Shown in pieces: positions 2,115 through 29,827 of a stretch of 32,000 nucleotides of DNA. Positions within the stretch are counted from its first letter, which is position 1. Each line of letters begins with the position of its first letter. Under the pieces are notes generated by a model that was given only the letters and a program-made list of their open reading frames with translations, searched no databases and was not told where the DNA came from. The position numbers and the translations under genes were made by a program. The stretch comes from Candidatus Saccharimonadota bacterium (GTDB lineage Bacteria > Patescibacteriota > Saccharimonadia > Saccharimonadales > Saccharimonadaceae), in assembly GCA_000503915.1 (NCBI GenBank), contig CP006915.1:300001-332000 (forward strand). The letters are read 5' to 3'.

Positions 2115-2204
<90 letters not shown>

Positions 2205-2208
2205 AATT

Positions 2209-2235
2209 AAAACCCGACCATGTGGTCGGGTTTTT
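2209..2235. terminator. Bidirectional terminator after tRNA-Ser(TGA) / pilin paralog 3
   Basis: Hairpin cccgacc-atgt-ggtcggg with a flanking A-run and a T5 run. Confidence 0.8.
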
Positions 2236-2250
2236 ATTTACCGTGAAAAA

Positions 2251-2658
2251 CTAAACGCTCGTGCCGCTACCGGCGCCACCCGTGAAGCTATCGAGTACGA
2301 AATTGACGATCGCGTAGGCCAAGAGGGCGATAATCACGCCGACGATTGCGTAGAGGATGGTGTTTTTGGCTGCAGTCACCGCTGTTGAGCTACCGCCAGA
2401 GATGACGTAGCGCAGGCCGCCGATGATGATCATGATAACCGATACGGCGCCGAGTACGAAGAGAAGGACGTTAGTAATCGTCCGGAAAATACCGGTTTGA
2501 CCAAAGAGATCAGTAGTTTGACTATTGCCGCGTGCCGCTTCTGCGCCGCCCTGAATAGTACCGTCAAATGCACCTACCATCGGTGCTGCGTAGATGGCGA
2601 GCACCAACGCTGCCGTGAGAAATGAAGGTAAAACTGTCCGAATCATTGTTTTGGTCAT
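2251..2658 (-). CDS. T4SS-pilin-like (TrbC/VirB2-type) protein, paralog 3, with signal peptide
   Basis: The internal ATG at 2658 has AAAGGAAAA upstream. N-terminus MTKTMIRTVLPSFLTAALVLAIYAAPMVGA. The conserved core reads LFGQTGIFRTITNVLLFVLGAVSVIMIIIGGLRYV...AAKNTILYAIVGVIIALLAYAIVNFVLDSF. Confidence 0.75.
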   Translation of the reverse strand: MTKTMIRTVLPSFLTAALVLAIYAAPMVGAFDGTIQGGAEAARGNSQTTDLFGQTGIFRTITNVLLFVLGAVSVIMIIIGGLRYVISGGSSTAVTAAKNTILYAIVGVIIALLAYAIVNFVLDSFTGGAGSGTSV

Positions 2659-2732
2659 GTATTTTCCTTTGTTTAATTCTATTTCCACTATAACAAAATG
2701 CTTCAAATAGTCTACTCGTCGCCCCTGTTTCG

Positions 2733-2741
2733 TGGTACAAT
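2733..2741 (+). promoter_or_regulatory. Extended -10 promoter (TGgTACAAT) heading the repeat array upstream of tRNA-Ser(GCT)
   Basis: TGgTACAAT read directly. The same nonamer precedes the tRNA-Ser(GGA) locus at 26040-26048. Confidence 0.5.
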
Positions 2742-2751
2742 TGTCCAAGTT

Positions 2752-3029
2752 GAGGGAGTGCCCCCAAGTGGCTGCTGCGTGAAACGCAAATTATGGACGG
2801 AAACCGTCCCCTTCAGTCCTTACGGAGTAGAAAGGTTTGAGGATTACGCAGGAGCTACGTGGTGTACGAAGCTTTACAATACGTGGAACGCCCAAGTGGC
2901 TGCTGCGTGAAACGCAAATTATGGACGGAAACCGTCCCTTTCAGCCTCGCTGTAAAGAAAATTTGGGTATCAGGCAGGAGTTACGTGGAATGCGTATCTC
3001 TAAAATATGGAGGAGTACCCAAGTGGCTG
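2752..3029 (+). repeat. Tandem ~127-128-nt repeat (2 full units plus the start of the tRNA), each unit carrying a tRNA-Ser(GCT) D-arm fragment
   Basis: The 48-nt block cccaagtggctgctgcgtgaaacgcaaattatggacggaaaccgtccc at 2763-2810 is repeated identically at 2891-2938. Its first 12 nt (cccaagtggctg) equal tRNA positions 3018-3029. A second conserved block, gcaggag(c/t)tacgtgg, lies at 2848-2862 and 2974-2988. Each unit is preceded by a -10-like box: TACAAT at 2736-2741, TACAAT at 2875-2880 and TAAAAT at 3001-3006. Confidence 0.85.
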
Positions 3030-3101
3030 AAGGGGACGGTTTGCTAAATCGTTAGTGTGGGGAGACCTGCAGCGGGAGTTCGAATCTCCCCTCCTCCGCC
3101 A
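3009..3101 (+). tRNA. tRNA-Ser(GCT), class II, CCA encoded
   Basis: Acceptor ggaggag/ctcctcc, anticodon stem acggt/atcgt with loop uuGCUaa, long variable arm, T-arm gggag-ttcgaat-ctccc, then gcca. Confidence 0.9.
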
Positions 3102-3109
3102 GGAGAGGA

Positions 3110-3138
3110 AGACCATATCTGAAGGATATGGTCTTTTT
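3110..3138 (+). terminator. Rho-independent terminator right after tRNA-Ser(GCT)
   Basis: 10-bp hairpin agaccatatc-tgaag-gatatggtct followed by tttt. Confidence 0.75.
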
Positions 3139-3169
3139 CTTCTGATGAAGAAAGGAAATTCGAACGGTC

Positions 3170-3225
3170 GAGTTCGGGCGAAGCGTTCGAGGCTATTGCC
3201 GAGAACCATCTCCCCTCCTCCGCCA
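3170..3225 (+). repeat. Interrupted partial copy of the tRNA-Ser(GCT) 3' end
   Basis: gagttcg (3170-3176) equals tRNA 3076-3082. After a 31-nt unrelated insert, atctcccctcctccgcca (3208-3225) is 18/18 identical to tRNA 3084-3101. Confidence 0.85.
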
Positions 3226-3380
3226 GAATGAAAAACGCTCGACCAAATGGCCGGGCTTTTTTCATACGCCGCAGGCGGCGGAATTCAAACTCCGCGCTGA
3301 TTTTGTTCGCCGTAGCTCACAAAACGCGGGAGTGGTGCTCGCGTTGCTCGCACCTCCGTTCGACTAAAGCCTCACTCCGA

Positions 3381-3394
3381 CGAATCTCCCCCAG
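3381..3394 (+). repeat. Second, shorter tRNA-Ser(GCT) T-loop/3' fragment
   Basis: cgaatctcccc (3381-3391) equals tRNA 3081-3091 and is followed by cca. The region 3278-3295 also holds a T-arm-like hairpin, gcgga-attcaaac-tccgc, and 3314-3324 holds a D-arm-like gccgtagctca. Confidence 0.5.
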
Positions 3395-3410
3395 TGGTAT
3401 AATTGAGTCA

Positions 3411-3767
3411 ATGAAACTCTATCTTAGTCACGCAAGCAATTTTGATTACCAAACGGAGCTTTATAAGCCGCTAAAAGCAGCTTTTATGGGTAAGTACGAA
3501 ATATACTTCCCGCACGATGTTGAAAACAACGGTCAAAATTCGAAAGATATCATCGCCACATGTGATTTAGTCATCGCCGAGGTGTCTCGGCCATCAACCG
3601 GACAGGGAATCGAGTTGGGCTGGGCGAATGCCGCGGGCGTGCCTATAATTTGTTTCCATCAAGAAAACATGAAGCCATCGGGTGCGGTAAAGTACGTCGC
3701 CAAGGCAATGTTTTCGTACACTACGACCGATAGTCTGGTTAACGAGCTACCTAAGTATCTGGAGTAA
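3411..3767 (+). CDS. Nucleoside 2-deoxyribosyltransferase-like superfamily protein (118 aa)
   Basis: The motif DLVIAEVSRPSTGQGIELGWANAAGVPIICF matches the family signature (acidic residue, small residues, then the E-[IL]-G-x-A catalytic Glu region). TGgTATAAT at 3395-3403 ends 7 nt before the ATG at 3411. The upstream part of the track ORF (3228-3410) crosses tRNA fragments and is unlikely to be coding. Confidence 0.55.
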   Translation: MKLYLSHASNFDYQTELYKPLKAAFMGKYEIYFPHDVENNGQNSKDIIATCDLVIAEVSRPSTGQGIELGWANAAGVPIICFHQENMKPSGAVKYVAKAMFSYTTTDSLVNELPKYLE

Positions 3768-3880
3768 CGAGTCTCCTTTCCTAACATTGCTCATGTTATA
3801 TCTATGATATAGCACTTCGACGGTTTGATTTTTTAGGCTAGCTTTCAAAACGCTCACGCTCCTCATGCTATACTAATCCT

Positions 3881-4408
3881 ATGCAACCAGTGTCGTCAGA
3901 TCAGTCAGCGGCTACACCACAAGCACCCGTATCGCCTTCTCGGGCAGATGACGGGGCGGTTCAGTGGCAAGCACCTGAGTATTTGCAGCGTGCTCGCACG
4001 CCGCTTTGGTACGTTAGCTTTTGGGCGGCGGTAATAGTTCTGATGGGCATCGCTGCTTTTCTGATAAAATCGTGGTCGTTCGTCATCCTGGTACCGGTCA
4101 TGGCCGCCGCACTGGTAATCTACTCACACCGGCCGCCTCGTCAGCTGAATTACGTCTTGAGCGCTAAAGGACTATATATCAACGACCAGCTCCACCCCCT
4201 GAGTGAATTCCGCAGTTTTGGCGTCATGCAGGAGGAGAGCTGGCCTGCACTGGTATTTATACCGGTCAAACGGTTCCGCCCTGGGCTTACCGTCTATTTC
4301 CCGTCGGAAAATGGTGAGGCTATCGTCGATATTCTCGGTGCGCGTATCCCGATGGAGGAGCTTCACCTCGATGCCTTCGACAAAATTGTTCGCAAGCTTC
4401 GTATGTAG
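3881..4408 (+). CDS. Hypothetical membrane protein (two TM helices, then a soluble C-terminal domain)
   Basis: 175-aa ORF with hydrophobic segments WYVSFWAAVIVLMGIAAFLI and SFVILVPVMAAALVIY. TGcTATACT (3866-3874) ends 6 nt before the ATG. Confidence 0.6.
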   Translation: MQPVSSDQSAATPQAPVSPSRADDGAVQWQAPEYLQRARTPLWYVSFWAAVIVLMGIAAFLIKSWSFVILVPVMAAALVIYSHRPPRQLNYVLSAKGLYINDQLHPLSEFRSFGVMQEESWPALVFIPVKRFRPGLTVYFPSENGEAIVDILGARIPMEELHLDAFDKIVRKLRM

Positions 4409-4520
4409 CTTGCTCGAATTACCCCTGTTATGCTACAATAGCTTTCGTCTGTCGCGTGTTGCGCGGAAGCACCTTATAGTTACAAAACGACGGCACAGAA
4501 TTTATTCCGTGCCCGAGTGA

Positions 4521-4597
4521 GCACCCGTAGCTCAGCTGGATAGAGCGTTGGCTTGCGGAGCCAAAGGTCATAGGTTCGAATCCTGTCGGGTGTACCA
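4521..4597 (+). tRNA. tRNA-Arg(GCG), CCA encoded
   Basis: Acceptor gcacccg/cgggtgt (G1-U72 wobble), D-arm gctc-agctggata-gagc, anticodon stem ttggc/gccaa with loop uuGCGga, T-arm atagg-ttcgaat-cctgt, then acca. A TGcTACAAT box lies at 4430-4438. Confidence 0.85.
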
Positions 4598-4599
4598 AG

Positions 4600-4631
4600 A
4601 AAAATAACTCATCTTTCGGTGAGTTATTTTT
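4600..4631. terminator. Bidirectional terminator
   Basis: 12-bp hairpin aaaaataactca-tctttcgg-tgagttattttt. The A and T tracts are part of the stem. Confidence 0.8.
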
Positions 4632-4651
4632 CTTGTCGGTTTATTTTTAAG

Positions 4652-4978
4652 CTAAATGCTCTGTTGTGTGGCTGACGATGACTCGTAGTGGTCATACATC
4701 GGCATTGGGTGTATATAGTCGTAGGAGTTGCTCGTCGTGGAAATGAGGATGACAAAGAGGACGAACAGAATCAGCAGTAATGCTAGGATAACGGACAGGC
4801 TACCGAGAATAATGCCGGCGATGCCGAGACCGCGATTGGTCGGGTTTTTTAGCGAAAGAGTGCCTAAAATGATGGCGGGAATGCCGGTCAGCGGACCGGG
4901 ACCGGCAAATGAGACGATACCGAGCACCAGGGCGGCAATTGCCAAGTTGTTTTCCTTCTTTGTCTCGACTTGTTTCAT
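4652..4978 (-). CDS. DUF4190-like small membrane protein
   Basis: Gly-rich TM repeats LAIAALVLGIVSFAGPGPLTGIPAIILGTLSL and GLGIAGIILGSLSVILALLLILFVLFVIL. The ATG at 4978 (MKQVETKK) has TATACT ending 6 nt upstream. The 5002 start is an alternative. Confidence 0.65.
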   Translation of the reverse strand: MKQVETKKENNLAIAALVLGIVSFAGPGPLTGIPAIILGTLSLKNPTNRGLGIAGIILGSLSVILALLLILFVLFVILISTTSNSYDYIHPMPMYDHYESSSATQQSI

Positions 4979-5028
4979 ATCACCAGTATACGCCATTCTC
5001 ATGGTAAAATACTAGAGATCAACTACCC

Positions 5029-5150
<122 letters not shown>

Positions 5151-17738: not shown

Positions 17739-19409
17739 ATGGCGAAGAAAGTTTTTTATGATGAAGAGGCCCGCGAGCGCGTACTCGGCGGGGCAAAAGC
17801 ACTCTATGATGCCGTTAAGGTAACCTACGGGCCGAAAGGTCGCAACGTGGTGATTGCGAAAGGCTACGGCGGCCCAACGGTCACTCACGACGGCGTGACT
17901 GTTGCTGAAGGTATGGAACTACCAGAGAATGATGATGAGACGCTCGGCTACAAAGTCGGTGCCGATCTCATCAAGCAGGCAGCCAAGAATCTCAACAAAA
18001 GCGCCGGTGATGGTACGACTACCGTTACCGTGCTGACTTACAATATCTTGAAAGAAGCGAACCGTTTGATCGCGGCTGGCCACAACCCGATGGAGCTACG
18101 CAAGGGTATTGAAGCTGCCGGGGCAGAAGTAGTCAAAGCACTCGATGGTATGAGTGAAAGTATCGAAGGTAACACCGAACGTGTGGCCGAAGTTGCGACC
18201 ATTTCGGCTGGTGATGCCCAGATCGGTACATTGATTGCTGATGTGATCGAAAAGATCGGCAAAGATGGTGTGGTCACCGTTGAAGCCGGCCAGGGTCTCG
18301 AGATGGAAGCCGAAGTCGTCGAAGGTTTTAGTCTCGACAAGGGGTGGGCGAGCCCATTCTTTGTGACCGACACCAATCGCCAAGAAGCAGTCTTTGAAAA
18401 GCCGTCGATTGTCATTACCGATAAGAAGATCTCAAGTGCCAGTGAACTGCTGCCCCTGATCGAGAAGCTTGCTCAAGCTGGTAAAAAAGATATCGTGTTG
18501 GTAGCCGATGATGTTGACGGCGAAGCGCTCAGTATCTTAGTACTCAACAAGCTTAAAGGCGTCCTCAACACTGTCGTTGTCAAAGCACCGAGCTTTGGTG
18601 ATCGCCGCAAGGAAATCATGGCCGATATGGCCGTCCTGACTGGTGCACAGGTAATCTCTGAAGACCAAGGTATGACGTTTGAAAACGTCGGCCTTGAAGT
18701 CGTCGGTTTGGCTCGTAAAGTTATTGTCGGTAAAGACGAGACCACCATCATTGAAGGGGTCGGCCACGCTGATGAAATCGCGGCTCGCATCAAACAGATT
18801 AGCGCGCAAGCCGAAAACGCTTCGAGCGAATACGACAAAGAGCAATACGAAAAACGTGCGGCGGCACTTTCTGGTAAAGTCGCCGTCATTAAAGTCGGTG
18901 GCGCCACAGAGACGGAGATTGATGAAAAGAAATTCCGTGTCGATGATGCCGTGGCGGCTACAAAAGCAGCGCTGGCTGAAGGTATCGTGCCGGGCGGTGG
19001 TGTCACCTTAGTGAACCTTGCTAAGAAATTGGAAGTAGTCAACCAGTCGAATAAGGGTATTCCAAGTGGTAATCTAACCTACTTTGCTGGTCACCAGGTT
19101 GTCAGAGAAGCTCTCAAACAACCCTTCTTGCAGATTACCGCAAACGCTGGGCTTAACAGCGAAGCATTGCTGGCTCAAGTCGAAGATGCAAAACCCGGCA
19201 TGGGAGTTGATGTCATGAATCCCGGCAAGACACTTATTGATGTCAAAAAAGCCGGTGTCATCGACCCGACTCGCGTCACCAAAGAAGCTGTCCAAAACGC
19301 GGTCTCGATCGCTTCGACTGCAGCCACTATGGGCGCATTGGTAGTAGACATCCCGGAAAAAGAAGCCTCAATGCCTCCAATGGGCGGCGGTATGCCTGGG
19401 ATGATGTAG
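17739..19409 (+). CDS. groEL: Chaperonin GroEL
   Basis: 556 aa. AGDGTTTVTVL and a GGGMPGMM C-terminal tail. GAAGGAGGAAAG Shine-Dalgarno. Confidence 0.97.
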   Translation: MAKKVFYDEEARERVLGGAKALYDAVKVTYGPKGRNVVIAKGYGGPTVTHDGVTVAEGMELPENDDETLGYKVGADLIKQAAKNLNKSAGDGTTTVTVLTYNILKEANRLIAAGHNPMELRKGIEAAGAEVVKALDGMSESIEGNTERVAEVATISAGDAQIGTLIADVIEKIGKDGVVTVEAGQGLEMEAEVVEGFSLDKGWASPFFVTDTNRQEAVFEKPSIVITDKKISSASELLPLIEKLAQAGKKDIVLVADDVDGEALSILVLNKLKGVLNTVVVKAPSFGDRRKEIMADMAVLTGAQVISEDQGMTFENVGLEVVGLARKVIVGKDETTIIEGVGHADEIAARIKQISAQAENASSEYDKEQYEKRAAALSGKVAVIKVGGATETEIDEKKFRVDDAVAATKAALAEGIVPGGGVTLVNLAKKLEVVNQSNKGIPSGNLTYFAGHQVVREALKQPFLQITANAGLNSEALLAQVEDAKPGMGVDVMNPGKTLIDVKKAGVIDPTRVTKEAVQNAVSIASTAATMGALVVDIPEKEASMPPMGGGMPGMM

Positions 19410-19412
19410 CTT

Positions 19413-19443
19413 AATGAGGGGAACCGAAATAGGTTCCCTCATT
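19413..19443 (+). other. Strong 13-bp hairpin just after the groEL stop (no U tract)
   Basis: aatgaggggaacc-gaaata-ggttcccctcatt. Confidence 0.6.
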
Positions 19444-19497
19444 GCTCCGGGCGTCGAAGTGAATTCGGCTGCTCGGGCTGCTCCTTCCTGTAGATTT

Positions 19498-19536
19498 AAA
19501 AATATCCTGGAAATAAATTCCAGGATATTTATTTTT
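19498..19536. terminator. Terminator between groEL and the helicase cassette
   Basis: 11-bp hairpin aatatcctgga-aataaat-tccaggatatt, then tattttt. An A-run precedes it, so it is possibly bidirectional. Confidence 0.7.
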
Positions 19537-19547
19537 CGAATGATCTT

Positions 19548-19605
19548 ATTGTCCGTTTTGGCTCAAGAAGTCGATTTCCTTGATGATGTCGAGCAGCGCT
19601 TAGGC
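19548..19605 (-). pseudogene. Displaced pseudo-copy of the last 19 codons of gene 22145-22747 (direct repeat A)
   Basis: Gap-free 58-nt alignment with 22147-22204 at 50/58 identity. On the minus strand it reads A*ALLDIIKEIDFLSQNGQ*, versus AQALLDIIKEIDFLTQSGQ* in the intact gene. Confidence 0.85.
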
Positions 19606-19615
19606 TAATAAAACG

Positions 19616-22093
19616 CTAACTGTCTAGTGTGTTACGTAGCTCGTGGTGGTCTTCAAGTAACTGATAAAGCTCTTCCAGTTTATCCCTGAGCGATTCAAGA
19701 TACGCGAGACGTGATGCGTAGACATCAAGGGTCGCGAGTCGTTGTCCAAGCGAAGACTCATGGTCGGCTACGGGGGTCTGATTTAATCGATCGATTTCAC
19801 CCTCAACTATCCGAATTGCGTCGTCAATCTGCTCCTCTCTTTCCCAGAATGCTCGGTAGGTAGGTTCTTTTATACCAAGTCGGCTTCGGGTATCAGCCAC
19901 TGCGCGCCAATAGAACGGGGTTTTCTCACCGTCGTCAGACATCCAAGGATATGCAGTCTTTTCATATTCCGATTTAACGCGCTTAACAAGTGGAATATCG
20001 GGTAAGGGAGCAGCAAGGCTGAAACTAGTAAACTGCTGTATAAATGGATTGCCGGAGTTCCTCCTATTTGTTTCGTGAATGGTGGGCTCCTCCTTGTCTC
20101 CTATATGGTGATCTTCATAGTAGTCTCGTAAACTTTCAGAACGTGAAGGGTGCCGTAGTTTGGCCAAGGCTTTTGACTCAATCTGGCGTACCCGCTCTTT
20201 TGTGATTCCATAGACTTTACCTATTTCATCTAACTCCATCGGCTCCTCTTTATCGACGCCTTCAACCCGGCCAATCCCTCCGATTTGTCCTTTTTGGTCG
20301 CGACTGTGAAGGCCAAAACGGCGCATTACAACACCTGCCTCTCGCTCACTTAGGGTATCAAGCGTGTCATGGAGTTGCTGCCTTGAGTGAAAGCCTACGG
20401 CCATCTGATGCGGGTTGCTTATTTCATCATTGTTTGCAACATCTTCTAGATCGAGCTGCACAAGCTGGTCGAGCTCTGCTCTTAGGGCGAATGATCCGAG
20501 AATATTTCGCTCGGGGCCAGAGACCTTGCCCATGGTTTCGATGAGCTCGTCCACCGAAGGGGCAACGCCATGGTCGTGATAAAACTTGGCGTACGCTTTA
20601 CTTACCCGCTTCTCAAGCTTTGGCGGCAAGGCATCGTTGTGGGAGAGCTCGGCTGGCAGCCCTTCCTTTTCTAGGGTAGCTTCCCATTCAGCAATAAGTG
20701 GATCGGTAATTTTTCCCACTGTAACGTTTCGCAGGAGCTTGCCTTGGCTTTCTATCAATCTTTTATGAATTTTGGGGCTGATCACATGAAGCAATTTCAG
20801 GCTGTGACTATGAGCCGGAGTGTGTTCAGCGGGGCGACCGAGCACACGGGTAAGATCGATCGTGTCAAGTCCTAAGGCGTGCATAGCTGTGTATTGTGAC
20901 TTGCTTCGACTACCAGATTTTTTATCAACAAAGTCGACAAAAATACTTTCGAGATCGTCAGGCTTCTTGCGCAGAATACGTCCAAGTAGTTGAGTGGTGC
21001 GCACAGGTGAACTGGTCGGCGCTAAGTTAATCGCAAAGCTCGCTCGATCACTATCCCAACCTTCTTCCAACGCGCGCGTGAAAGTGAGTACGTCGAAATC
21101 ACCGCGATGGTACGCGGCGAGACGACGCGCTTGTGTTTCAGCGTCGAGATGTGCACCAACGTCGGCTGCTCTTATGCCGGATGTCTTAAGTAAGTCGGCA
21201 AGCAGGCGCGCATGGAGGTTGTCTCTACCAGGTATGCAGGCGATGATGCCTTGTCTACCTTCCTCTACAAATGCTTTGGTGAGGGCGACTGCTGTGCCAT
21301 TACGCTGGAGGTTATGTGTAAGCGGGGCAAGTTCTTTATCAGTAAATTCCCGCCGAGGATCGTTTAGAACGAGGGTTTCATCTGTTTCATACAGAAAAGC
21401 GCGTACAGGTGAAGTGCGGCCGGATTCGACAGCGTCACGAAGAGAAAACTCGTACAGTCGACGATCGTATACCTCTTCTGACATTCGGTCTACTGCGTAG
21501 TCAGGGGTAGCAGAAAGTCCTAACTTAAAGGCGTGCGGCATGACAGTGCGCAATACTTCCGAAGTCTCTTTACCGAGACTTCGGTGGCATTCATCGGCAA
21601 TGATCACGTCAAACTCACCCAGTTTACGGTGTTCACTTTTAGCATCATTCAGGAGTCCGGCATAGGTACTGACTACCACGTCGGCGTTTTTATTTCCTTT
21701 TTTTCCATTAAAATGTTGCTCGACACGTGCATTTTCGGGTAAATGAGCAAAGCGCTTCAGACCAGTGGGAGAAGATGACTCTGAGCCATCGATTTGTTTG
21801 GCGATAGGTAGAGTGGGGGCAAGAAGTAGTACGCGTTTTCCAGCTTTGACAGCTGCTTCAGTGAGTAACGCTTCTACAGTGGTTTTCCCGGTACTGGTAG
21901 CCATCTCTATGTATCCAGAGGAAACGCCTTCTATTAAAGCAAGACCAATAGCCTCAAGCGCTTCAGTTTGCTGGAGGTCAAGAGAAAAGTCGCGTTCAGA
22001 TAAGTTATTGAGCACCCCTTGGAGCGAGCCGGCCAGCTCACAATCTGGCTTGGAGGAGGTTTCTGCAGAGGGTACAAGGTGCTCTTTTGGCAT
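19616..22093 (-). CDS. SF2 (DEAH-type) helicase fused to sigma-70 region 3-4-like domain plus extra C-terminal coiled-coil region
   Basis: Helicase motifs [31 protein letters not shown] (aa ~40-375). Residues ~505-658 are colinear with RpoD regions 3-4: [14 protein letters not shown] ... [15 protein letters not shown] ... [40 protein letters not shown]. About 170 further aa end in heptad-like repeats. Confidence 0.85.
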
Positions 22094-22099
22094 GAGGAT

Positions 22100-22128
22100 A
22101 TGCTAGCATAAAAGCACTAAAAAGTCAA
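22100..22128 (-). promoter_or_regulatory. Promoter of the helicase-sigma gene (leaderless-type)
   Basis: On the minus strand: TTGACT, 17 nt, TGcTAGCAT, 6 nt (atcctc), then the ATG at 22093. Confidence 0.65.
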
Positions 22129-22144
22129 GAGGTAGATGATGAAC

Positions 22145-22747
22145 CTACTGTCCGCTTTGGGTTAAGAAGTCGATCTCCTTGATGATATCGAGCAGCGCCT
22201 GGGCACGGCGGGTTTCATCAGGGATATTCTTGGCAGCGTCGTGAGCGGGTGCGATCAGGGCTTTGTCGTCAGTGGAACGAAGCAGGAGCAGGTACGTGTC
22301 GAACTTTTCCTCAGGTGCGACGTTCAGCTTATCGACCAGTGGTCGCAGCTCGCCGAGTGCTTCCTGTTTTATGCCATCGAGTTCGCTTCCGCCGCTTACT
22401 GGCATACTCGATAGTGACGGAGTAGGTATAGACAGAGGCGTATCAGCGGCCGGCGGCAGGGTCGATGTCTCGACATCTGTTGATTTTGGTGGAACAGTTG
22501 AAATAGACGGCGATTCTACGTCTGAAGCCAGAGAGGTGTCGTCTGCCGGTGCGGTAGTGTCGTCCTCAGGAGAAGGAGTAGCCGCGCTGTCATCTTGCGG
22601 CAGTGGCGGTGTGGCAGGCAGCGAAACATCGGTGGCACCACCATTAGTTGTCGTTTCATCCGCCTGTTGGCTGACGCCAGCTAAAACTTTCGCCAGCTCT
22701 TGATCATCGCTGAGCGGTTGGTTGTTGATTGGTTCTATATTCGCCAT
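22145..22747 (-). CDS. Acidic Pro/Ser/Thr/Ala-rich low-complexity protein with conserved helical C-terminal domain
   Basis: Start at MANIEPINNQ (ATG 22747). A long low-complexity middle is followed by the structured C-terminus ELDGIKQEALGELRPLVDKL...AQALLDIIKEIDFLTQSGQ. No family recognised. Confidence 0.6.
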   Translation of the reverse strand: MANIEPINNQPLSDDQELAKVLAGVSQQADETTTNGGATDVSLPATPPLPQDDSAATPSPEDDTTAPADDTSLASDVESPSISTVPPKSTDVETSTLPPAADTPLSIPTPSLSSMPVSGGSELDGIKQEALGELRPLVDKLNVAPEEKFDTYLLLLRSTDDKALIAPAHDAAKNIPDETRRAQALLDIIKEIDFLTQSGQ

Positions 22748-22838
22748 GCCCACCCCTATAGTTGTTATGCTTTTCAGTTGATAATACTGTATCATGAAAT
22801 ATAGAATCATCGCAAGACAGTAAGGAGGAAGACAGACA

Positions 22839-23864
22839 ATGCTTGACGATATGAACGTAATTGCCCAGCGCGACCCACAGGATGCCCTCGGTGTGGCCGG
22901 TGGCCAATGGGAATACTTTTCGCGAAAATTTGATGCTACCTTTACCCCAAGTCAGCCGGTCGAAAATATCGTTTGGGCGGGTATGGGCGGCTCGGCACTG
23001 CCGGCGGTAATCATCCAGAGCTGGCCGCGCGTCAGCGTACCATTTGAAATTACCCGTGACTACAACATTCCAGCCCATGTCGGGGCAAAGACTCTTTTTA
23101 TTGCCTCAAGCTATTCCGGTAACACTGAAGAAACACTGTCGGCGCTTGCGCTTGCCGAAGAAAAGCAGGCACAGATCGTCGTGATCGCCGCTGGCGGCAA
23201 GTTGGCCGAGATTGCCAAAGAGAAGAACTATCCGTTATTTGCTATTCCCGCCGGTATCCAGCCACGTATGGCAACGTTTTATTTTGTGAATGCATTTACA
23301 GCGATTGTAAAAGATCTGAATGTCACTGAGGTACCAACCAACGAGTTAACAAATGTCGGTGAGTGGCTGAAAGAAGAGGTAAAAGGGTGGACAAAAGAAG
23401 TTTTACTTGCGGGCAACCAAGCCAAGCAACTCGCCGTCCAACTGGCGGGTAAGACGCCGATCATGTATGCCGGGCCGAAGCTGTTTCCGGCCGCCAACAA
23501 ATGGAAGATTTGTTTCAACGAAAACGCCAAAAACACCTCATGGGCGAACTACTACCCAGAATTCAACCACAATGAATTTATCGGTTGGAGCTCACATCCG
23601 GTCGAAAAACCATTTGCTGTGGTCGAAATCCGCTCAAATCTGGAGCACGAGCGAACTCAAAAGCGCTTTGAAGTAACCGAACGCCTGCTTTCCGGTATGC
23701 GTCCAAGCCCGATTGTCGTGACGCCAAAAGGTGACACCGTCTTGCAGCAACTGGCGTGGAGCTTCGCGCTCGGTGACTTCGTGAGTATTTACCTTGGTAT
23801 CTTAAATGGCGTTAATCCAACGCCGGTGGAGTTAGTGGAAAAACTAAAGGTCGAACTTGGCTAG
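22839..23864 (+). CDS. Bifunctional phosphoglucose/phosphomannose isomerase-type SIS-domain protein
   Basis: SIS motif ASSYSGNTEETL. The length (341 aa) and C-terminal layout are typical of PGI/PMI-family isomerases. AAGGAGGAAG Shine-Dalgarno. Confidence 0.75.
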   Translation: MLDDMNVIAQRDPQDALGVAGGQWEYFSRKFDATFTPSQPVENIVWAGMGGSALPAVIIQSWPRVSVPFEITRDYNIPAHVGAKTLFIASSYSGNTEETLSALALAEEKQAQIVVIAAGGKLAEIAKEKNYPLFAIPAGIQPRMATFYFVNAFTAIVKDLNVTEVPTNELTNVGEWLKEEVKGWTKEVLLAGNQAKQLAVQLAGKTPIMYAGPKLFPAANKWKICFNENAKNTSWANYYPEFNHNEFIGWSSHPVEKPFAVVEIRSNLEHERTQKRFEVTERLLSGMRPSPIVVTPKGDTVLQQLAWSFALGDFVSIYLGILNGVNPTPVELVEKLKVELG

Positions 23865-23954: not shown

Positions 23955-25187
23955 TTAATGATAGCGTCGGAGCGATTCGATTGGGTCTTTGCGAGCGGCG
24001 CGGATGGCCGGATAGAGTCCAAAGACCAAGCCGACACCAATCGAAAGCAGGCTGGCGTAGCCGACGATATCCCAACCAAGTGCCGGGTCGTACGGAATAA
24101 ACATACTGACGACGAAAGCAACAAAGTAGCCACCGATAAAGCCGAGTAGGCCGCCCAGAGTACTGATGATGAGTGCCTCGATCAGGAATTGCCAGATGAT
24201 TGTGGCATTGCTGGCGCCAACAGCTTTTCGAAGGCCGATTTCGCGCGTCCGCTCTGAGACGCCGACCAGCATGATGTTCATAATACCGATACCGCCGACT
24301 AGCAGAGAAATACCCGCAATGACCGCCATGACCGCACTGATGAAGAGAAAGAGATGGCTGGTCGGCCTGGCGATTTCCTTGCCGGTATAAACTTTGGCTT
24401 CGGGTTGCTGGTCGTGATTTTCTTTTAGCTCTTTATCGATGCTAGTTGCGAAAGCTTTCATGTTGGTGCCGGCTTTGGCAGCGACATTGATCTGTTGGAT
24501 TTGCGCCATGCCGCCATTAAATAGCTTGCCGCTCTCCAGGCTAATGATAGCTGTATTGTCGAAGTCAACGTTATTGTAGTTGATCGGCTTGTTCTCACGC
24601 TTTAGGACGCCGATAACCGTAAAATCCTGGCCGCGTATCAGAAACTTTCGGCCGATCGACTGCTCGGTGCCAAAAAGATCTACCGAAAGTTGCGAGCCAA
24701 TCACGGCAGTATCTTGGGTGGTGACACTATCGATAAACTGGCCGTCCTCGATGGTAATGCCGCCGATTGTTTCAAAGGCCGGCGTGGTGGCAAGTAACGT
24801 CGCGTTTTTTGCCAGGCTGTCACGTGTACGGATACTGCCGCTGAGTGTCATCAGCGGTGCAACGTTCTGGGTGGAAGGTAGGCTGCCGATATTCTCGACG
24901 TCACGCTCGGTTAAGGGGCTGGTCGTGTAAGCATTTTGTGGTGTCGGGTTACTCAGGTCGGACAGGCTGAGTTCTGGCGTCGTGGGGCGTACGATGGCGA
25001 TATTGCCGCCGAGCTCCTCGATCTGCTGTGTGATGACGCGCGTAACGCCGCTGGACAAGGCGAGAATGGTGGTGATGCTGGCGACACCGATGGCAACGCC
25101 GCTGATGGTCAGCAGCGTGCGGAGCCGTGCTCGCTCAAGCGACTGACGAGCTGTGCGGTAGTGGTCACCCAGGAGTAAGTTGGTCAT
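23955..25187 (-). CDS. ABC transporter permease, MacB/FtsX family
   Basis: 410 aa. N-terminal TM, large periplasmic-type domain, and a C-terminal FtsX-like 3-TM bundle (GIGIMNIMLVGVSERTREIGLRKAVGA). ATGA overlap with the upstream ATPase gene. Confidence 0.85.
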   Translation of the reverse strand: MTNLLLGDHYRTARQSLERARLRTLLTISGVAIGVASITTILALSSGVTRVITQQIEELGGNIAIVRPTTPELSLSDLSNPTPQNAYTTSPLTERDVENIGSLPSTQNVAPLMTLSGSIRTRDSLAKNATLLATTPAFETIGGITIEDGQFIDSVTTQDTAVIGSQLSVDLFGTEQSIGRKFLIRGQDFTVIGVLKRENKPINYNNVDFDNTAIISLESGKLFNGGMAQIQQINVAAKAGTNMKAFATSIDKELKENHDQQPEAKVYTGKEIARPTSHLFLFISAVMAVIAGISLLVGGIGIMNIMLVGVSERTREIGLRKAVGASNATIIWQFLIEALIISTLGGLLGFIGGYFVAFVVSMFIPYDPALGWDIVGYASLLSIGVGLVFGLYPAIRAARKDPIESLRRYH

Positions 25188-25975
25188 CTCTTTGCCTTTC
25201 GCTTTGGTTTCTTTTTGGTTTTTACAGCGCGGCTGTCGAGCGGCACTTTAGTATGGACACGCTCCAGTATACGTTCATCTTGAGTGTCGGTATCGATGCG
25301 GCCATCGAGCATGGTGATGACGCGCGTGGCATAGGTTGTAAGGTTGGGGTTGTGTGTCACCATGATGATCGTGTTACCCTTTTTGTGAACTTCAGAGAGC
25401 TCTTCCATGATGACATGGCTGGAGCGTGAGTCGAGATTGCCGGTCGGCTCGTCGGCGAGAATGATGCTAGGGTTGCTCACGAGAGCGCGGGCAATAGCAA
25501 CACGCTGCGTCTGGCCGCCACTCAGCTGCCATGGCATATAATATTCTCGTTCCTGCAGATGGAAAGTACTGAGGGCTTTACTCGCTAGCTGCAAGCGCTT
25601 TGTGTGGTGGACGCCGCTATAGGTGAGGGGAAGCGCCACATTTTCGAGGACGTTTAGTCGCTCGATCAGGTTGAAGCTTTGAAAGATGAAACCAATTTGG
25701 CGAGCACGTATACGCGCCTGTTCGCCGCCACGGATGTCCTCGACATTTTTACCATCGAGTAGATATTCACCGTCGGTTGATCGATCGAGCATGCCGATGA
25801 TATTGAGTAGGGTCGTCTTGCCGCAGCCGCTCGGACCCATAATAGCGATAAATTCTCCCCTATTCACCGTGAGATCTACCCCATCGAGCGCGTAATTTTC
25901 GGCGTCGCCAATCCCAAACCGCTTTTTCAGGCCCTTGAGTTTGACGACTGGTGTACTCACAGTGGGTCGTTTCAT
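25184..25975 (-). CDS. ABC transporter ATP-binding protein (MacB/LolD type)
   Basis: Walker [10 protein letters not shown], signature LSGGQTQR, Walker B ILADEPT. Start MKRPTVS at 25975, with TATAAT (complement of 25983-25988) ending 7 nt upstream. The longer track ORF to 26302 runs through a tRNA gene. Confidence 0.9.
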
Positions 25976-26039
25976 CTGTTCTATTATAGAAATCGCAGTG
26001 AGGTAAAAGCAACCAAAAGCAGGCCGTATTTTTGACAAC

Positions 26040-26048
26040 TGGTACAAT
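26040..26048 (+). promoter_or_regulatory. Extended -10 promoter (TGgTACAAT) upstream of the tRNA-Ser(GGA) locus
   Basis: Read directly. The predicted transcription start lies about 5 nt before the 5' tRNA fragment at 26060. Confidence 0.5.
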
Positions 26049-26059
26049 AGAGTACGCGG

Positions 26060-26072
26060 GGAGAGGTGGCCG
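26060..26072 (+). repeat. 5' fragment copy of tRNA-Ser(GGA)
   Basis: ggagaggtggccg is 13/13 identical to tRNA 26197-26209, then diverges. It can fold back on cctctc at 26085-26090. Confidence 0.7.
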
Positions 26073-26196
26073 TGAAGCGAAGTGCCTCTCGCAGACAATC
26101 TTGATTGTCGAGAAAGGTACGAGCGGATATAGTGAGGATGTGCCAGCGGCACACCGGAACGCTGTGGATACGAGGCCATCGATCCGAGCGAAGTAA

Positions 26197-26286
26197 GGAG
26201 AGGTGGCCGAGTGGTTGAAGGCGCACGCTTGGAAAGCGTGTATACGTGCAAACGTATCGCAGGTTCGAATCCTGTTCTCTCCGCCA
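26197..26286 (+). tRNA. tRNA-Ser(GGA), class II, CCA encoded
   Basis: Acceptor ggagagg/tctctcc, anticodon stem cacgc/gcgtg with loop uuGGAaa, long variable arm, T-arm cagg-ttcgaat-cctg, then gcca. Confidence 0.9.
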
Positions 26287-26295
26287 GGAGAGGCG

Positions 26296-26322
26296 AGCTC
26301 ATTCTTTATGAATGGGCTTGTT
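26296..26322 (+). terminator. Hairpin/terminator right after tRNA-Ser(GGA)
   Basis: 9-bp hairpin agctcattc-tttat-gaatgggct (one G-U pair), followed by tgtt. Confidence 0.5.
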
Positions 26323-27367: not shown

Positions 27368-29827
27368 ATGAACGGAATTCATGTGGTAAAGCGAGATGGC
27401 ACCCGCGAACCATTTGACGCCAACAAGATTAACCTGGCGCTGGTGAAAGCAAGTGAGGGCTTACCGGACCAGATATCTAAAGTAGTGCAGGTAGCGACCG
27501 AGCTCCAACTGACACTCTTTGATGGCATCACATCTGAGCAGCTTGACGAAGCAGTAATCCATACGGCACTGCAGAACGTCAAAGACGATCCAGACTTTGA
27601 CAAAGTCGCAGCGAGGCTGCTGCTCAAGAACATCTACAAGAACATCCTGGGTGATTTCGAAACCGACGCGCAACTAAAGAAACTTCACGCCAGCGCGTTT
27701 CCTAAATATATCAAGGACGCCGTTAAAAACGGTCTGCTAGACGAGCGCATGGGCGACGGCCGTTTCGACCTTAAGAGACTGGCAGCTGCACTCGAGCCTG
27801 CGCACGACGAACTCTTTAAATATATCGGTGTGGTAACCAATAAAAACCGCTACGCCCTGCGTAAAAACAGCGGCGCACCGATCGAAACACCACAGTTTAC
27901 CCACATGCGTATCGCTATGGGGCTTTCCTACAATGAAAAAGACCCGACCCAGGCAGCACTTGATTTCTACGAACACATGAGCCGACTCGAGTACGTCCCG
28001 GGCGGTTCGACTCGCGTGAACGCCGGTGGCGCTTTCCCGCAGCTTTCCAACTGCTTCCTGATGGAAGTACAAGACGACATGGAGTCGATCGCCAAGAGTA
28101 TTCGCGACACGATGTGGATCGCCAAAGGTACCGGTGGTATCGGCATTACCATGACCAAGCTTCGTGCGGCCGGCAGTCCGGTAAAGACGACCAACACTGA
28201 AAGTACCGGACCAATTCCATTTATGAAGATGATCGACACGGCACTCTTTGCCGTATCGCGAAAAGGCAAGAAAGCCGGCGCCGCGGCCATGTACATGGAG
28301 AACTGGCACCTCAACTTCCCGCAATTTCTCGACCTGCGTGTCAACTCTGGTGACCCATACCTCAGAACCCGTATCATGAACACGGCAGTTTATCTGAGCG
28401 ATGAATTCATGAACCGTGTCCAAAAAGGCCAAGACTGGTACTTGTTTGACCCGGCCGAAGTGGAAGACTTACCGGAACTCTACGGCGCTGATTTTAGTAA
28501 GCGTTACAACGAGTACGTCAAATTGGCGGAAAAAGGTGAGATTCGCGAATTTTCTAAAGTTCCCGCTCGCCAGCAGTTCAAGCAGATCTTGACGACGCTA
28601 CAGGCGACCGGACACCCGTGGCTGACGTGGAAGGACACTATCAACGTCCGTGCGCTCAACAACAACACCGGTACGATTCATTGTTCAAACCTCTGTACCG
28701 AGATTACTTTGCCGCAGGATGAAAAGAACGTGTCGGTCTGTAACCTGATTTCGATCAACTTGTCACGTCACCTGACGGAAGACAAGACGTGGGAATGGGA
28801 TAAGCTAGAAAAAAGTGTCCGCTCGGCTGTTCGCCAGCTCGACAACCTCTGTGACATTACCAACACGCCGATTCCAGAAGCGATGCATTCCAACCTGCAG
28901 AACCGTGCGATCGGCCTTGGCCTGATGGGCTTTACCGACGTAATCGAGAAATTGAGCCACAGCTACGAGTCTGAAGAGGCATATGACCTGATCGACCAGC
29001 TGGTGGAATTTATCAGCTACTACGCAATCGACGAATCAGCCGAGCTTGCCAAGCTTCGGGGCAGTTACCCACAATTTAAGGGCAGCGGCTGGAGCCAGGG
29101 CTTATTGCCGATTGACACTGTCGATGAACTCGGCAAGTCGCGTAAGCTCAAAGTGAACGTCAACAAAAAGACCCGTCTCGATTGGGAAGTCTTGCGTAAA
29201 AAAGCCACCAAGGGCATGCGCAACGCAACCTTGATGGCTATCGCACCGACCGCCAACATTGGCCTGATTGCTGGCACAACCCCTGGTCTTGACCCGCAGT
29301 TTGCGCAGATCTTCTCGCGTAGCACGCTGAGTGGTAAGTTCCTCGAAGTGAACCAAAATCTTGTTCGTGACTTAAAAGAGCTGGACCTTTGGGATCAAGT
29401 CAAAAACGAAGTGCTGGCTCGCCAAGGCGATATCCAGGATATCGAGGCAATCCCGCAGCACATCAAAGATGTCTACAAAACCAGTTTCCAGCTTAGTCCG
29501 TACGCTTTCATCGAAGTCGCGGCGCGCGCTCAGAAGTGGGTTGACCAAGCAATTTCTCGCAATATGTACCTTGAGACTCGCAACATCGATGACTACGTCG
29601 ATATTTACAGCGAAGCATGGAAGCGCGGCCTGAAGACTACCTACTACTGCCACGTCAAACCGCGTCACCAGGCTGAGCAAAGTACCACTCACGTCAACAA
29701 AACCGAAGAGCTAGCTAAAAAGAGCGGTGGCGCTCGTAAGTCAGGCTTCGGCTTCGCGAAAAAACAAACAACAGGGGTCCCCGAGAAACTTGTTTCACGG
29801 GGTATAGAAACGGAGGCAGGGGTATGA
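27368..29827 (+). CDS. nrdA: Ribonucleoside-diphosphate reductase alpha subunit (class I), one ATP-cone
   Basis: ATP-cone VVKRDGTREPFDANKI. Active-site motifs LSNCFL, CSNLCTEI and VCNLISINL. The TTYY pair lies near the C-terminus. AGGGGAAATC Shine-Dalgarno. No Cys occurs in the last ~58 aa of the annotated frame. Confidence 0.95.
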   Translation: MNGIHVVKRDGTREPFDANKINLALVKASEGLPDQISKVVQVATELQLTLFDGITSEQLDEAVIHTALQNVKDDPDFDKVAARLLLKNIYKNILGDFETDAQLKKLHASAFPKYIKDAVKNGLLDERMGDGRFDLKRLAAALEPAHDELFKYIGVVTNKNRYALRKNSGAPIETPQFTHMRIAMGLSYNEKDPTQAALDFYEHMSRLEYVPGGSTRVNAGGAFPQLSNCFLMEVQDDMESIAKSIRDTMWIAKGTGGIGITMTKLRAAGSPVKTTNTESTGPIPFMKMIDTALFAVSRKGKKAGAAAMYMENWHLNFPQFLDLRVNSGDPYLRTRIMNTAVYLSDEFMNRVQKGQDWYLFDPAEVEDLPELYGADFSKRYNEYVKLAEKGEIREFSKVPARQQFKQILTTLQATGHPWLTWKDTINVRALNNNTGTIHCSNLCTEITLPQDEKNVSVCNLISINLSRHLTEDKTWEWDKLEKSVRSAVRQLDNLCDITNTPIPEAMHSNLQNRAIGLGLMGFTDVIEKLSHSYESEEAYDLIDQLVEFISYYAIDESAELAKLRGSYPQFKGSGWSQGLLPIDTVDELGKSRKLKVNVNKKTRLDWEVLRKKATKGMRNATLMAIAPTANIGLIAGTTPGLDPQFAQIFSRSTLSGKFLEVNQNLVRDLKELDLWDQVKNEVLARQGDIQDIEAIPQHIKDVYKTSFQLSPYAFIEVAARAQKWVDQAISRNMYLETRNIDDYVDIYSEAWKRGLKTTYYCHVKPRHQAEQSTTHVNKTEELAKKSGGARKSGFGFAKKQTTGVPEKLVSRGIETEAGV

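Follow-up and report, generated by a model that had tools for sequence, protein, structure and literature searches.

A duplicated gene end beside a helicase-sigma gene in a Saccharibacterium: probable scar of one-sided homologous recombination

Introduction

How does the end of one gene come to stand twice in a chromosome, once in its proper place and once on the far side of a neighbouring gene? The question is raised by a 32 kb stretch of DNA (the window) from Candidatus Saccharibacteria bacterium RAAC3_TM7_1, an uncultivated groundwater Saccharibacterium. In this window a gene encoding a fusion of a helicase with sigma-factor regions (helicase-sigma) lies between groEL and a gene for a protein of 200 amino acids (the 200-aa gene). 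The last 19 codons and the stop codon of the 200-aa gene (copy B) are repeated, with changes, just beyond the helicase stop codon (copy A). The initial annotation of the window had taken the two copies as the bounds of a single-gene cassette inserted site-specifically into a gene end. We find it more probable, at roughly 0.55, that the repeat is the scar of a one-sided homologous recombination, that is, homology-facilitated illegitimate recombination (HFIR), most likely after the uptake of DNA from a related Saccharibacterium. The loci of related genomes used in our comparisons are labelled L001, L199, L200 and so on.

Results and discussion

The gene-end repeat

The gene order around the repeat is groES and groEL on the plus strand, the helicase-sigma gene and the 200-aa gene on the minus strand, phosphoglucose isomerase (PGI) on the plus strand, and MacB/FtsX and an ABC ATPase on the minus strand. 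Realignment gave the same ungapped match as had been reported, 50 identical positions out of 58 between nucleotides 19548–19605 and 22147–22204, and a repeat search extended it to 66 nucleotides (nt; 19540–19605 and 22139–22204, two copies, ungapped, 56/66 or 85% identity). The part that corresponds to the stop and 19 codons (19546–19605 and 22145–22204) is identical at 51 of 60 positions, and the longest identical run shared by the two copies is 12 nt. Copy B (22145–22204, minus strand) is the true, functional 3' end of the 200-aa gene and reads AQALLDIIKEIDFLTQSGQ followed by the stop. Copy A (19546–19605, minus strand) reads A-stop-ALLDIIKEIDFLSQNGQ-stop and lies 10 nt from the helicase stop codon (spacer 19606–19615), as first described; it is non-functional, since no coding sequence precedes it and a CAA>TAA change is present in it. 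Only a promoter and the helicase-sigma open reading frame (ORF) of 825 codons lie between the copies.

The repeat is real and is confined to this locus. Four assemblies, made independently from three samples or more, contain both copies and the junction exactly, which rules out an assembly artefact. A 35 nt core pattern of the repeat was found twice in the window and not once in 100 shuffles, and there is no second copy in about 90 related loci; a common intergenic repeat is thereby ruled out.

Over the 60 nt of the gene end the copies differ at nine positions. Six differences are synonymous (in codons for D, E, L and Q, in the stop codon, and at the third base of CAG>TAA), two are conservative replacements (T/S and S/N) and one is a nonsense change. 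The initial annotation had counted five of eight differences as synonymous; their mostly synonymous character stands, but the count becomes six of nine over 60 nt, and the stop-codon change that it included lies just outside its own 58 nt alignment. The proportion of differences is 0.49 at synonymous sites (pS) and 0.063 at nonsynonymous sites (pN), with P = 0.0036 against the neutral expectation. As the differences fall mostly at synonymous sites, the copies diverged as coding sequence.

Empty sites and the native copy

The closest relative that we found, L001, has about 90% amino-acid and about 80% nucleotide identity to the window over the ABC, MacB, PGI, groEL and groES genes. It is fully syntenic and has no helicase gene: a gene of 187 codons is followed by a terminator hairpin and then by groEL. 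The left-hand alignment of the window (17740–19605, through copy A) and the right-hand alignment (from 22146, in copy B) fall on the same 59 nt of L001. The site is also empty in L199, with the 200-aa gene followed at once by a terminator and groEL. Relatives with an empty site and a single copy of the gene end, which the initial annotation had proposed to look for, thus exist in the order gene, terminator, groEL.

Copy A matches the gene ends of L001, L199 and L200 at 57, 56 and 56 of 60 positions, respectively; for copy B the figures are 50 for L001 and 49–51 for all three. Copy A shares with these three gene ends the tail SQNGQ and a stop, and its peptide is identical to the tails of P0003 and P0004. 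The stretch from groEL through three hairpins to copy A is collinear with L001. Hairpins 1 and 2, downstream of groEL on the plus strand (19413–19444 and 19447–19476; fold z = -5.2 over 19413–19476), show ordinary divergence from L001 (78% identity) with compensatory changes in the stems. Hairpin 3 (19497–19536), a predicted bidirectional intrinsic terminator with a 13 bp stem at 19500–19530, is common to the window and L001 only, with 39 of 40 positions identical, and L199 and L200 have different terminators. This hairpin directly follows the 187-codon gene in L001 and copy A in the window. Because copy A adjoins the hairpin of L001 and matches the L001 gene end at 57 of 60 positions, it is the displaced native end. 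The initial annotation had likewise suggested that copy A evolved as coding sequence before being displaced, and the pS and pN values given above agree with it.

From the position of hairpin 3 behind copy A it can be predicted that transcription of the helicase gene would continue across copy A and stop at this native, bidirectional terminator. A linker of 9 nt (19537–19545) separates the hairpin from copy A, and its stop-proximal part resembles the bases that follow the stop of copy B at five of six positions (ATGATC at 19540–19545, ATGAAC at 22139–22144). We note that an ORF of 64 codons (19414–19608, plus strand) is called as a gene in some assemblies (L093 and L094); it covers all three terminator hairpins, crosses copy A in the antisense direction and is almost certainly spurious.

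In a three-way comparison of copy A, copy B and L001, eight changes (six of them synonymous) fall on the branch to B, a single change (the nonsense change) on the branch to A and two on that to L001. In an equal span of time a relic free of selection cannot gather fewer changes than a copy under selection, so the two copies are alleles of different lineages that were united recently and not the outcome of a duplication in place; on the reading favoured below they would be neither left and right attachment sites (attL and attR) nor a target-site duplication.

The closeness of copy A to L001 was considered separately. Of the codons whose amino acid is conserved between them, 17 of 18 are identical, against 0.52 genome-wide, and only two of 2275 such windows, drawn from eight genes, reach 17/18. 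On this figure alone an import of copy A from an L001-like relative would be favoured; against it stand the slow evolution of the gene end in L199 and L200 and the outlier status of the 200-aa gene in the window, which is described below. Among L001, L199 and L200 the codon identity at synonymous sites is 0.70–0.79 over the last 20 codons of the gene, and 0.70–0.94 with copy A included; PGI and the remainder of the gene stand at about 0.5. In PGI, L199 and L200 are equidistant from the window (0.46–0.54). As the gene end evolves slowly throughout the clade, the closeness of copy A to L001 is what would be expected of a native sister allele. No such synonymous constraint at the gene end was seen in more distant species pairs. 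The conservation could reflect an RNA or DNA element, or a flank homogenized by recombination.

A breakpoint upstream of the 200-aa gene

The 200-aa gene occupies 22145–22747 on the minus strand, with its ATG at 22747. Segment identities for the pairs window–L001, window–L200 and L001–L200, in that order, are 0.81, 0.80 and 0.76 in the 3' half of PGI, 0.78, 0.79 and 0.78 in its 5' half, and 0.91, 0.82 and 0.86 in the intergenic region between PGI and the 200-aa gene. Within the 200-aa gene they are 0.83, 0.82 and 0.89 for codons 1–30, 0.77, 0.79 and 0.82 for the C-terminal domain, and 0.83, 0.85 and 0.92 for the last 60 nt, that is, copy B. The window accounts for 73 of the 281 unique sites in PGI and the intergenic region compared with 39 of the 83 in the 200-aa gene (Fisher p = 4e-4). 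Its excess in the gene is mainly synonymous (29 synonymous and nine nonsynonymous sites; synonymous sites number 22 for L001 and 18 for L200).

The best change-point lies at 22783–22808, in a conserved region just upstream of the start codon (twice the log-likelihood difference, 17.6; permutation p about 0.002; three or four genomes). L001 has the window as its closest partner upstream of this point, and downstream of it the window is the outlier. When copy A was put in place of copy B, the native pattern of unique sites (1/2/3) was restored. With the change-point ahead of the start codon, the foreign-like tract extends past copy B and is not confined between the repeats, so the description of the locus as a single-gene cassette bounded by the repeats cannot be maintained. 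Judged from these site patterns, the whole 200-aa allele would have arrived together with the helicase gene.

Variation at the site in other species

The interval flanked by groEL and, at its other end, by the 200-aa gene and PGI is a variable hotspot between conserved core genes. Our survey covered 80 species-level loci, across which this frame is conserved. groEL is directly adjacent (70–425 nt) in 38 of the 80, unrelated genes occupy 0.5–4.4 kb of the interval in 27 (HATPase_c_3 ATPases, a DUF11 protein and many unknowns), a helicase gene is present in two, and groEL lies outside the fetched locus in 15. In this conserved frame with an interval that is either empty or filled with unrelated genes, the locus is like other chromosomal hotspots, which recombination in their flanks maintains.

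Helicase homologues occur at the same site in L004, L008/L024, L011, L063 and L196, with 43–64% identity to that of the window. In these five other lineages the spacer between the helicase gene and groEL is 12–81 nt, or other genes lie between, and there is no duplicated gene end. A six-frame motif scan of about 90 other loci likewise found no second gene end; it was found in the window only. The idea of a recurrent element that carries the repeat with it is contradicted by these results. When the relationships of the helicase were compared with those of the flanking genes, PGI fell into two types and the other genes were roughly equidistant.

Several further features of the hotspot were noted. 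In L011 the hairpin that follows the stop of a 147-codon orthologue (L011:4369–4407) is repeated 2.1 kb downstream (L011:6469–6507), over 39 nt with 74% identity and compensatory stem changes. The two hairpin copies bracket three extra ORFs (278, 174 and 91 amino acids) between the 147-codon gene and the helicase gene, and L011 may thus provide another example of cargo at this hotspot set between copies of a flank. In L002 (8624–8830) the interval between a 180-codon gene and groEL holds a gene for a 68-residue HTH_17/MerR (excisionase-like) protein and an ORF of 79 codons. Upstream of ABC/MacB in some occupied loci, a large serine recombinase (Resolvase, Recombinase and Zn_ribbon_recom domains) is encoded (L004, 16–1740; L005, 3–1727; L009, 1–1204). 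In the near-identical genome of L008 a Fic protein (L008:1–499) takes the place of the serine recombinase, which makes this position, some 5 kb away from the helicase gene, a second variable spot.

Proposed origin of the repeat

These observations are best accommodated by HFIR, and the sequence of events would be as follows. The ancestor would have had the empty arrangement seen in L001, with PGI, the 200-aa gene, hairpin 3 and groEL in order. A fragment of about 3.2 kb from an occupied relative would have brought in another 200-aa allele, the promoter, the helicase-sigma gene and 10 nt past its stop. One end of the fragment would have been joined by a homologous crossover just upstream of the 200-aa gene, at 22783–22808, which would form the right end of the imported tract. 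The other end would have had no homologous partner, and a putative illegitimate joint at 19605/19606 would have formed inside the native gene, 60 nt before its stop. About 0.6 kb of the L001-like locus would thereby have been replaced, and the native gene would have been lost except for its last 60 nt, which would persist as copy A beside the native terminator. Copy B, the donor gene end, would now complete the functional gene.

HFIR has been described during natural transformation of Streptococcus pneumoniae, Acinetobacter baylyi and Pseudomonas stutzeri, as a process in which DNA is inserted and recipient DNA is lost together, on average about 1 kb of each, with 3–10 bp of microhomology (PMC3240628). 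Natural competence is known from Saccharibacteria in culture, which incorporate DNA through homologous recombination (PMC10633639). The locus resembles HFIR in that one boundary lies in homologous sequence and the other would be joined without homology, in the coupling of an insertion (about 3.2 kb) with a deletion (about 0.6 kb), in needing no mobility gene and in the competence of the host group. The deletion is visible in that the last 60 nt of the native gene are left in the window, compared with the intact 187-codon gene in L001. It differs from the published studies in that the process is reconstructed here from natural genomes and was there observed in experiment, and from typical HFIR products in that the incoming DNA would have carried an allele of the gene that it disrupted, which would give a gene-end repeat of a kind not seen in those products. 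Ordinary exchange at a hotspot has homology on both flanks and leaves no scar, whereas here one junction would be illegitimate, so that a relic of the replaced allele survives. The event, so read, is of a known kind, HFIR at a core-gene hotspot, here in a bacterium of a candidate phylum.

Part of the initial account survives in this reading: there is an empty site, the native end was displaced, and a replacement end would have come with the incoming DNA. Site-specific insertion is the part that has to be given up, as the locus has no recombinase and the copies are never identical over more than 12 nt at a stretch. When the major ORFs of the 32 kb were all scanned against Pfam, no tyrosine or serine recombinase, integrase or transposase was found, in agreement with the earlier statement that no integrase is present. 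Rfam and tRNA scans found nothing at the junctions.

Several points weigh against this reconstruction. At 19605/19606, where the blastn alignment to L001 ends, gene-end homology is lost abruptly; microhomology at the joint can be judged only from the donor sequence, and the donor is unsampled, the nearest helicase homologue being 64% identical. The 200-aa allele of the window is also no closer than its sister alleles to any of 84 outside genomes. The breakpoint test covers only three or four genomes, and its signal could instead reflect an exchange of the 200-aa gene among L001, L199 and L200. The 9 nt linker behind hairpin 3 differs strongly from L001, to which it has 36% identity. Copy A and hairpin 3 together differ from L001 at four positions in 100 nt, far closer than the genome average of 80%, and the closeness of copy A fits only through the clade-wide conservation of the gene end. 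Natural transformation would be the route by analogy with cultivated Saccharibacteria, in which competence was demonstrated, whereas the present host is uncultivated; no competence genes were found in the window. We also noted that the sequence after the helicase stop, CGTTTTATTA, resembles that after the stop in L001, AGCTTTATTA, at eight of ten positions by eye, but this short, AT-rich, after-the-fact comparison was not relied on.

If the HFIR model is right, the locus is a natural sequence-level footprint of a one-sided recombination by which an uncultivated groundwater Saccharibacterium gained an accessory gene. Such an import would agree with the competence of Saccharibacteria in the laboratory and would mean that cargo can enter a core-gene hotspot without mobile-element machinery. 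For annotation it carries a caution, since a direct repeat of a gene end can mimic attL and attR while really being two alleles side by side.

Alternative interpretations

The transfer might have run in the opposite direction, which we consider unlikely. In that case the helicase gene would be resident with copy B as its own end, and a short fragment of an L001-like empty site (hairpin 3 and the last 60 nt of the gene) would have been taken up. It would have paired in the terminator region and been joined illegitimately 10 nt behind the helicase stop, as a failed replacement of the occupied by the empty allele. Such an origin would explain why copy A with hairpin 3 is 95–97% identical to L001 compared with 78–81% for hairpins 1 and 2 and groEL, and why the 17/18 synonymous codons stand so far above the genome-wide 0.52 while the agreement of copy B with L001, 10 of 17, is at the ordinary vertical level. 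It would also suit the tracking of MacB identity by helicase identity across other occupied loci (64/67, 62/70, 48/60 and 43/58%). Against this, at least two events are needed, as all sampled close relatives are empty, and the outlier status of the whole 200-aa gene from its start codon is left without explanation unless extra assumptions are made. Only some 45 nt of homologous tract would derive from the donor, and the signal that copy A is too close to L001 is weaker given the conservation of the gene end throughout the clade.

A circular element consisting of the promoter, the helicase-sigma gene and a phage-type attachment site (attP) that mimics the gene end might have inserted into the 3' end of the 200-aa gene, making the repeats attL and attR; we regard this as quite improbable. 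Integration would then have needed an integrase, either supplied in trans or later lost, or else one crossover of the Campbell type in the 60 nt of homology. The empty sites in relatives suit such an element, as do direct repeats that bracket a self-contained unit of promoter and gene. The promoter travels with the gene into another context in L195, the family is found at three other genomic positions, and the serine recombinases of L004, L005 and L009 lie about 5 kb away. The locus is like the islands and prophages that insert at the 3' ends of tRNA, tmRNA and protein genes and restore the end from attP, in having an empty site in relatives and a displaced original and a functional replacement end as direct repeats. 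It is unlike them in having no integrase and no identical core, in a foreign-like tract that continues past one repeat through the whole 200-aa gene, and in the presence of the same gene at this site elsewhere without repeats.

Integration of circularized fragments by a single crossover is known to duplicate part of the homologous segment (PMC3240628), and the window resembles such products in that direct repeats of a host-gene segment flank the insert. Campbell-type integration predicts hybrid repeat copies and a native gene body, whereas in the window each copy is wholly of one allelic type, so that a crossover could only have fallen at the very border of the homologous stretch, and the gene body is foreign-like. 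Moreover, the 32 kb hold no recombinase; the copies, at 85% identity, agree without interruption over 12 nt at most, where attL and attR should share an identical core; five other lineages have the helicase gene at this site without a repeat, and no other locus has a duplicated gene end. No member of the family was found on viral contigs.

It is highly unlikely, in our estimate, that the last 60 nt or so of the 200-aa gene serve as a dedicated recombination target for the swapping of cargo by unrecognized machinery, perhaps the helicase-sigma protein itself. The suggestion arises from the synonymous conservation of the gene end (0.70–0.94 against about 0.5) and from the cargo block with a duplicated flank in L011. 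If it were true, the repeat would be a real att-like site of a cassette system in Saccharibacteria that lacks a recombinase or is mobilized in trans.

A duplication in place, as a long target-site or tandem duplication on arrival of the helicase gene followed by decay of copy A as a pseudogene, is barely credible and is effectively refuted by the asymmetry of the branch lengths: the repeat does reach 6 nt past the stop, where copy A resembles copy B (5/6) more than L001, but eight changes (six synonymous) in B against one in A are the opposite of decay (a probability of about 2e-5, calculated from the branch counts, if A evolved four times faster), in three other genomes the gene ends are almost the same as copy A, and there is neither a transposase nor a terminal inverted repeat at the boundaries. 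Transposons and insertion sequences are marked by a transposase, terminal inverted repeats and a short identical target-site duplication; such an element was rejected here, as the window has no transposase and no inverted repeats at the boundaries, and the repeat is 60–66 nt long, 85% identical and diverged in the manner of alleles.

The helicase-sigma gene and its neighbours

The helicase-sigma gene (19616–22093, minus strand; stop codon 19616–19618) encodes 825 amino acids with Pfam matches to ResIII, DEAD, Helicase_C and Sigma70_r4. A superfamily 2 (SF2) helicase core of the ResIII/DEAD/Helicase_C type covers residues of about 35–410, sigma-70 regions 3–4 cover about 496–660, and the C-terminal tail of about 165 residues has no domain assignment. 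The core weakly resembles PbeA and the restriction helicases of types I and IV. The sigma part (residues 541–659) is closest to regions 3.2–4 of primary sigma factors, and its top matches among solved structures are the C-termini of actinobacterial HrdB/SigA (1e-19). Cultivated Saccharibacteria live on Actinobacteria.

The protein falls far below the cut-off of every curated family considered (RpoD/SigA, MzaA, PbeA and HsdR). Its best NCBIfam score is 100.6 bits against 582 required, it scores 71 with the MzaA model against a cut-off of 800, and the PbeA and restriction-enzyme models cover the helicase core only. The architecture is common to about 70 clusters, which, where a source is named, come mostly from Saccharibacteria or related Patescibacteria. 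On viral contigs there was no full-length member of the family. When metagenomes were scanned with the helicase alignment, the overly general search patterns brought up generic SF2 helicases for the most part. No description of a helicase/sigma fusion was found in the literature searched. The fusion is sporadic in Saccharibacteria and uncharacterized, and may deserve a study of its own.

The promoter of the helicase gene (22100–22128, minus strand) reads TTGACT-17-TAGCAT with an upstream TG and ends 6 nt before the ATG, as the initial annotation had it. Since it abuts the start codon, a leaderless mRNA would be implied. A promoter of the form TTGAC(T/A)-17-TAnnAT, ending 0–7 nt before the ATG, is kept in the window (22094–22128), L004, L008 and L195, which indicates that the gene carries its own leaderless expression signal. 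In L195 it accompanies the gene outside the groEL site. The family members in unrelated contexts are those of L195, L197 and L198. In L197 (5001–9853) a homologue of 1029 amino acids directly follows rplJ–rplL, the usual place of rpoB, and is itself followed by a protein of 567 amino acids with Sigma70_r4 and 28% identity to the C-terminal half of the fusion.

The protein encoded by the 200-aa gene is conserved in Saccharibacteria; it has 3896 homologues, from Saccharibacteria in nearly all cases, and no match in Pfam, NCBIfam, PADLOC or PHROG. The NCBI label for it is 'bifunctional phosphoglucose/phosphomannose isomerase'. A PGI domain is absent from it, the true PGI being the adjacent gene, and the name is probably misassigned. 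PGI (bact-PGI_C; 22839–23864, plus strand) is the conserved, native flank on that side of the interval. The conserved flank on the other side is groEL (17739–19409, plus strand; Pfam Cpn60_TCP1, 8e-68), which converges on the helicase gene and the 200-aa gene and has about 91% amino-acid identity to that of L001.

Other features of the window

An ORF of 372 codons for an ABC ATPase (25184–26302) overlaps a tRNA-Ser(gga) gene (26197–26286) at its 5' end. Its orthologues have 263–270 amino acids, and the real start codon is probably further downstream. A tRNA-Ser(aga) called by ARAGORN at 28288–28383 lies inside a ribonucleotide reductase gene, was not confirmed by Rfam and is probably false. 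Two proteins with a T4SS_pilin domain (281–757 and 2251–2748) are interleaved with a tRNA cluster (2115–5117) that comprises three tRNA-Ser genes and one tRNA-Arg gene.

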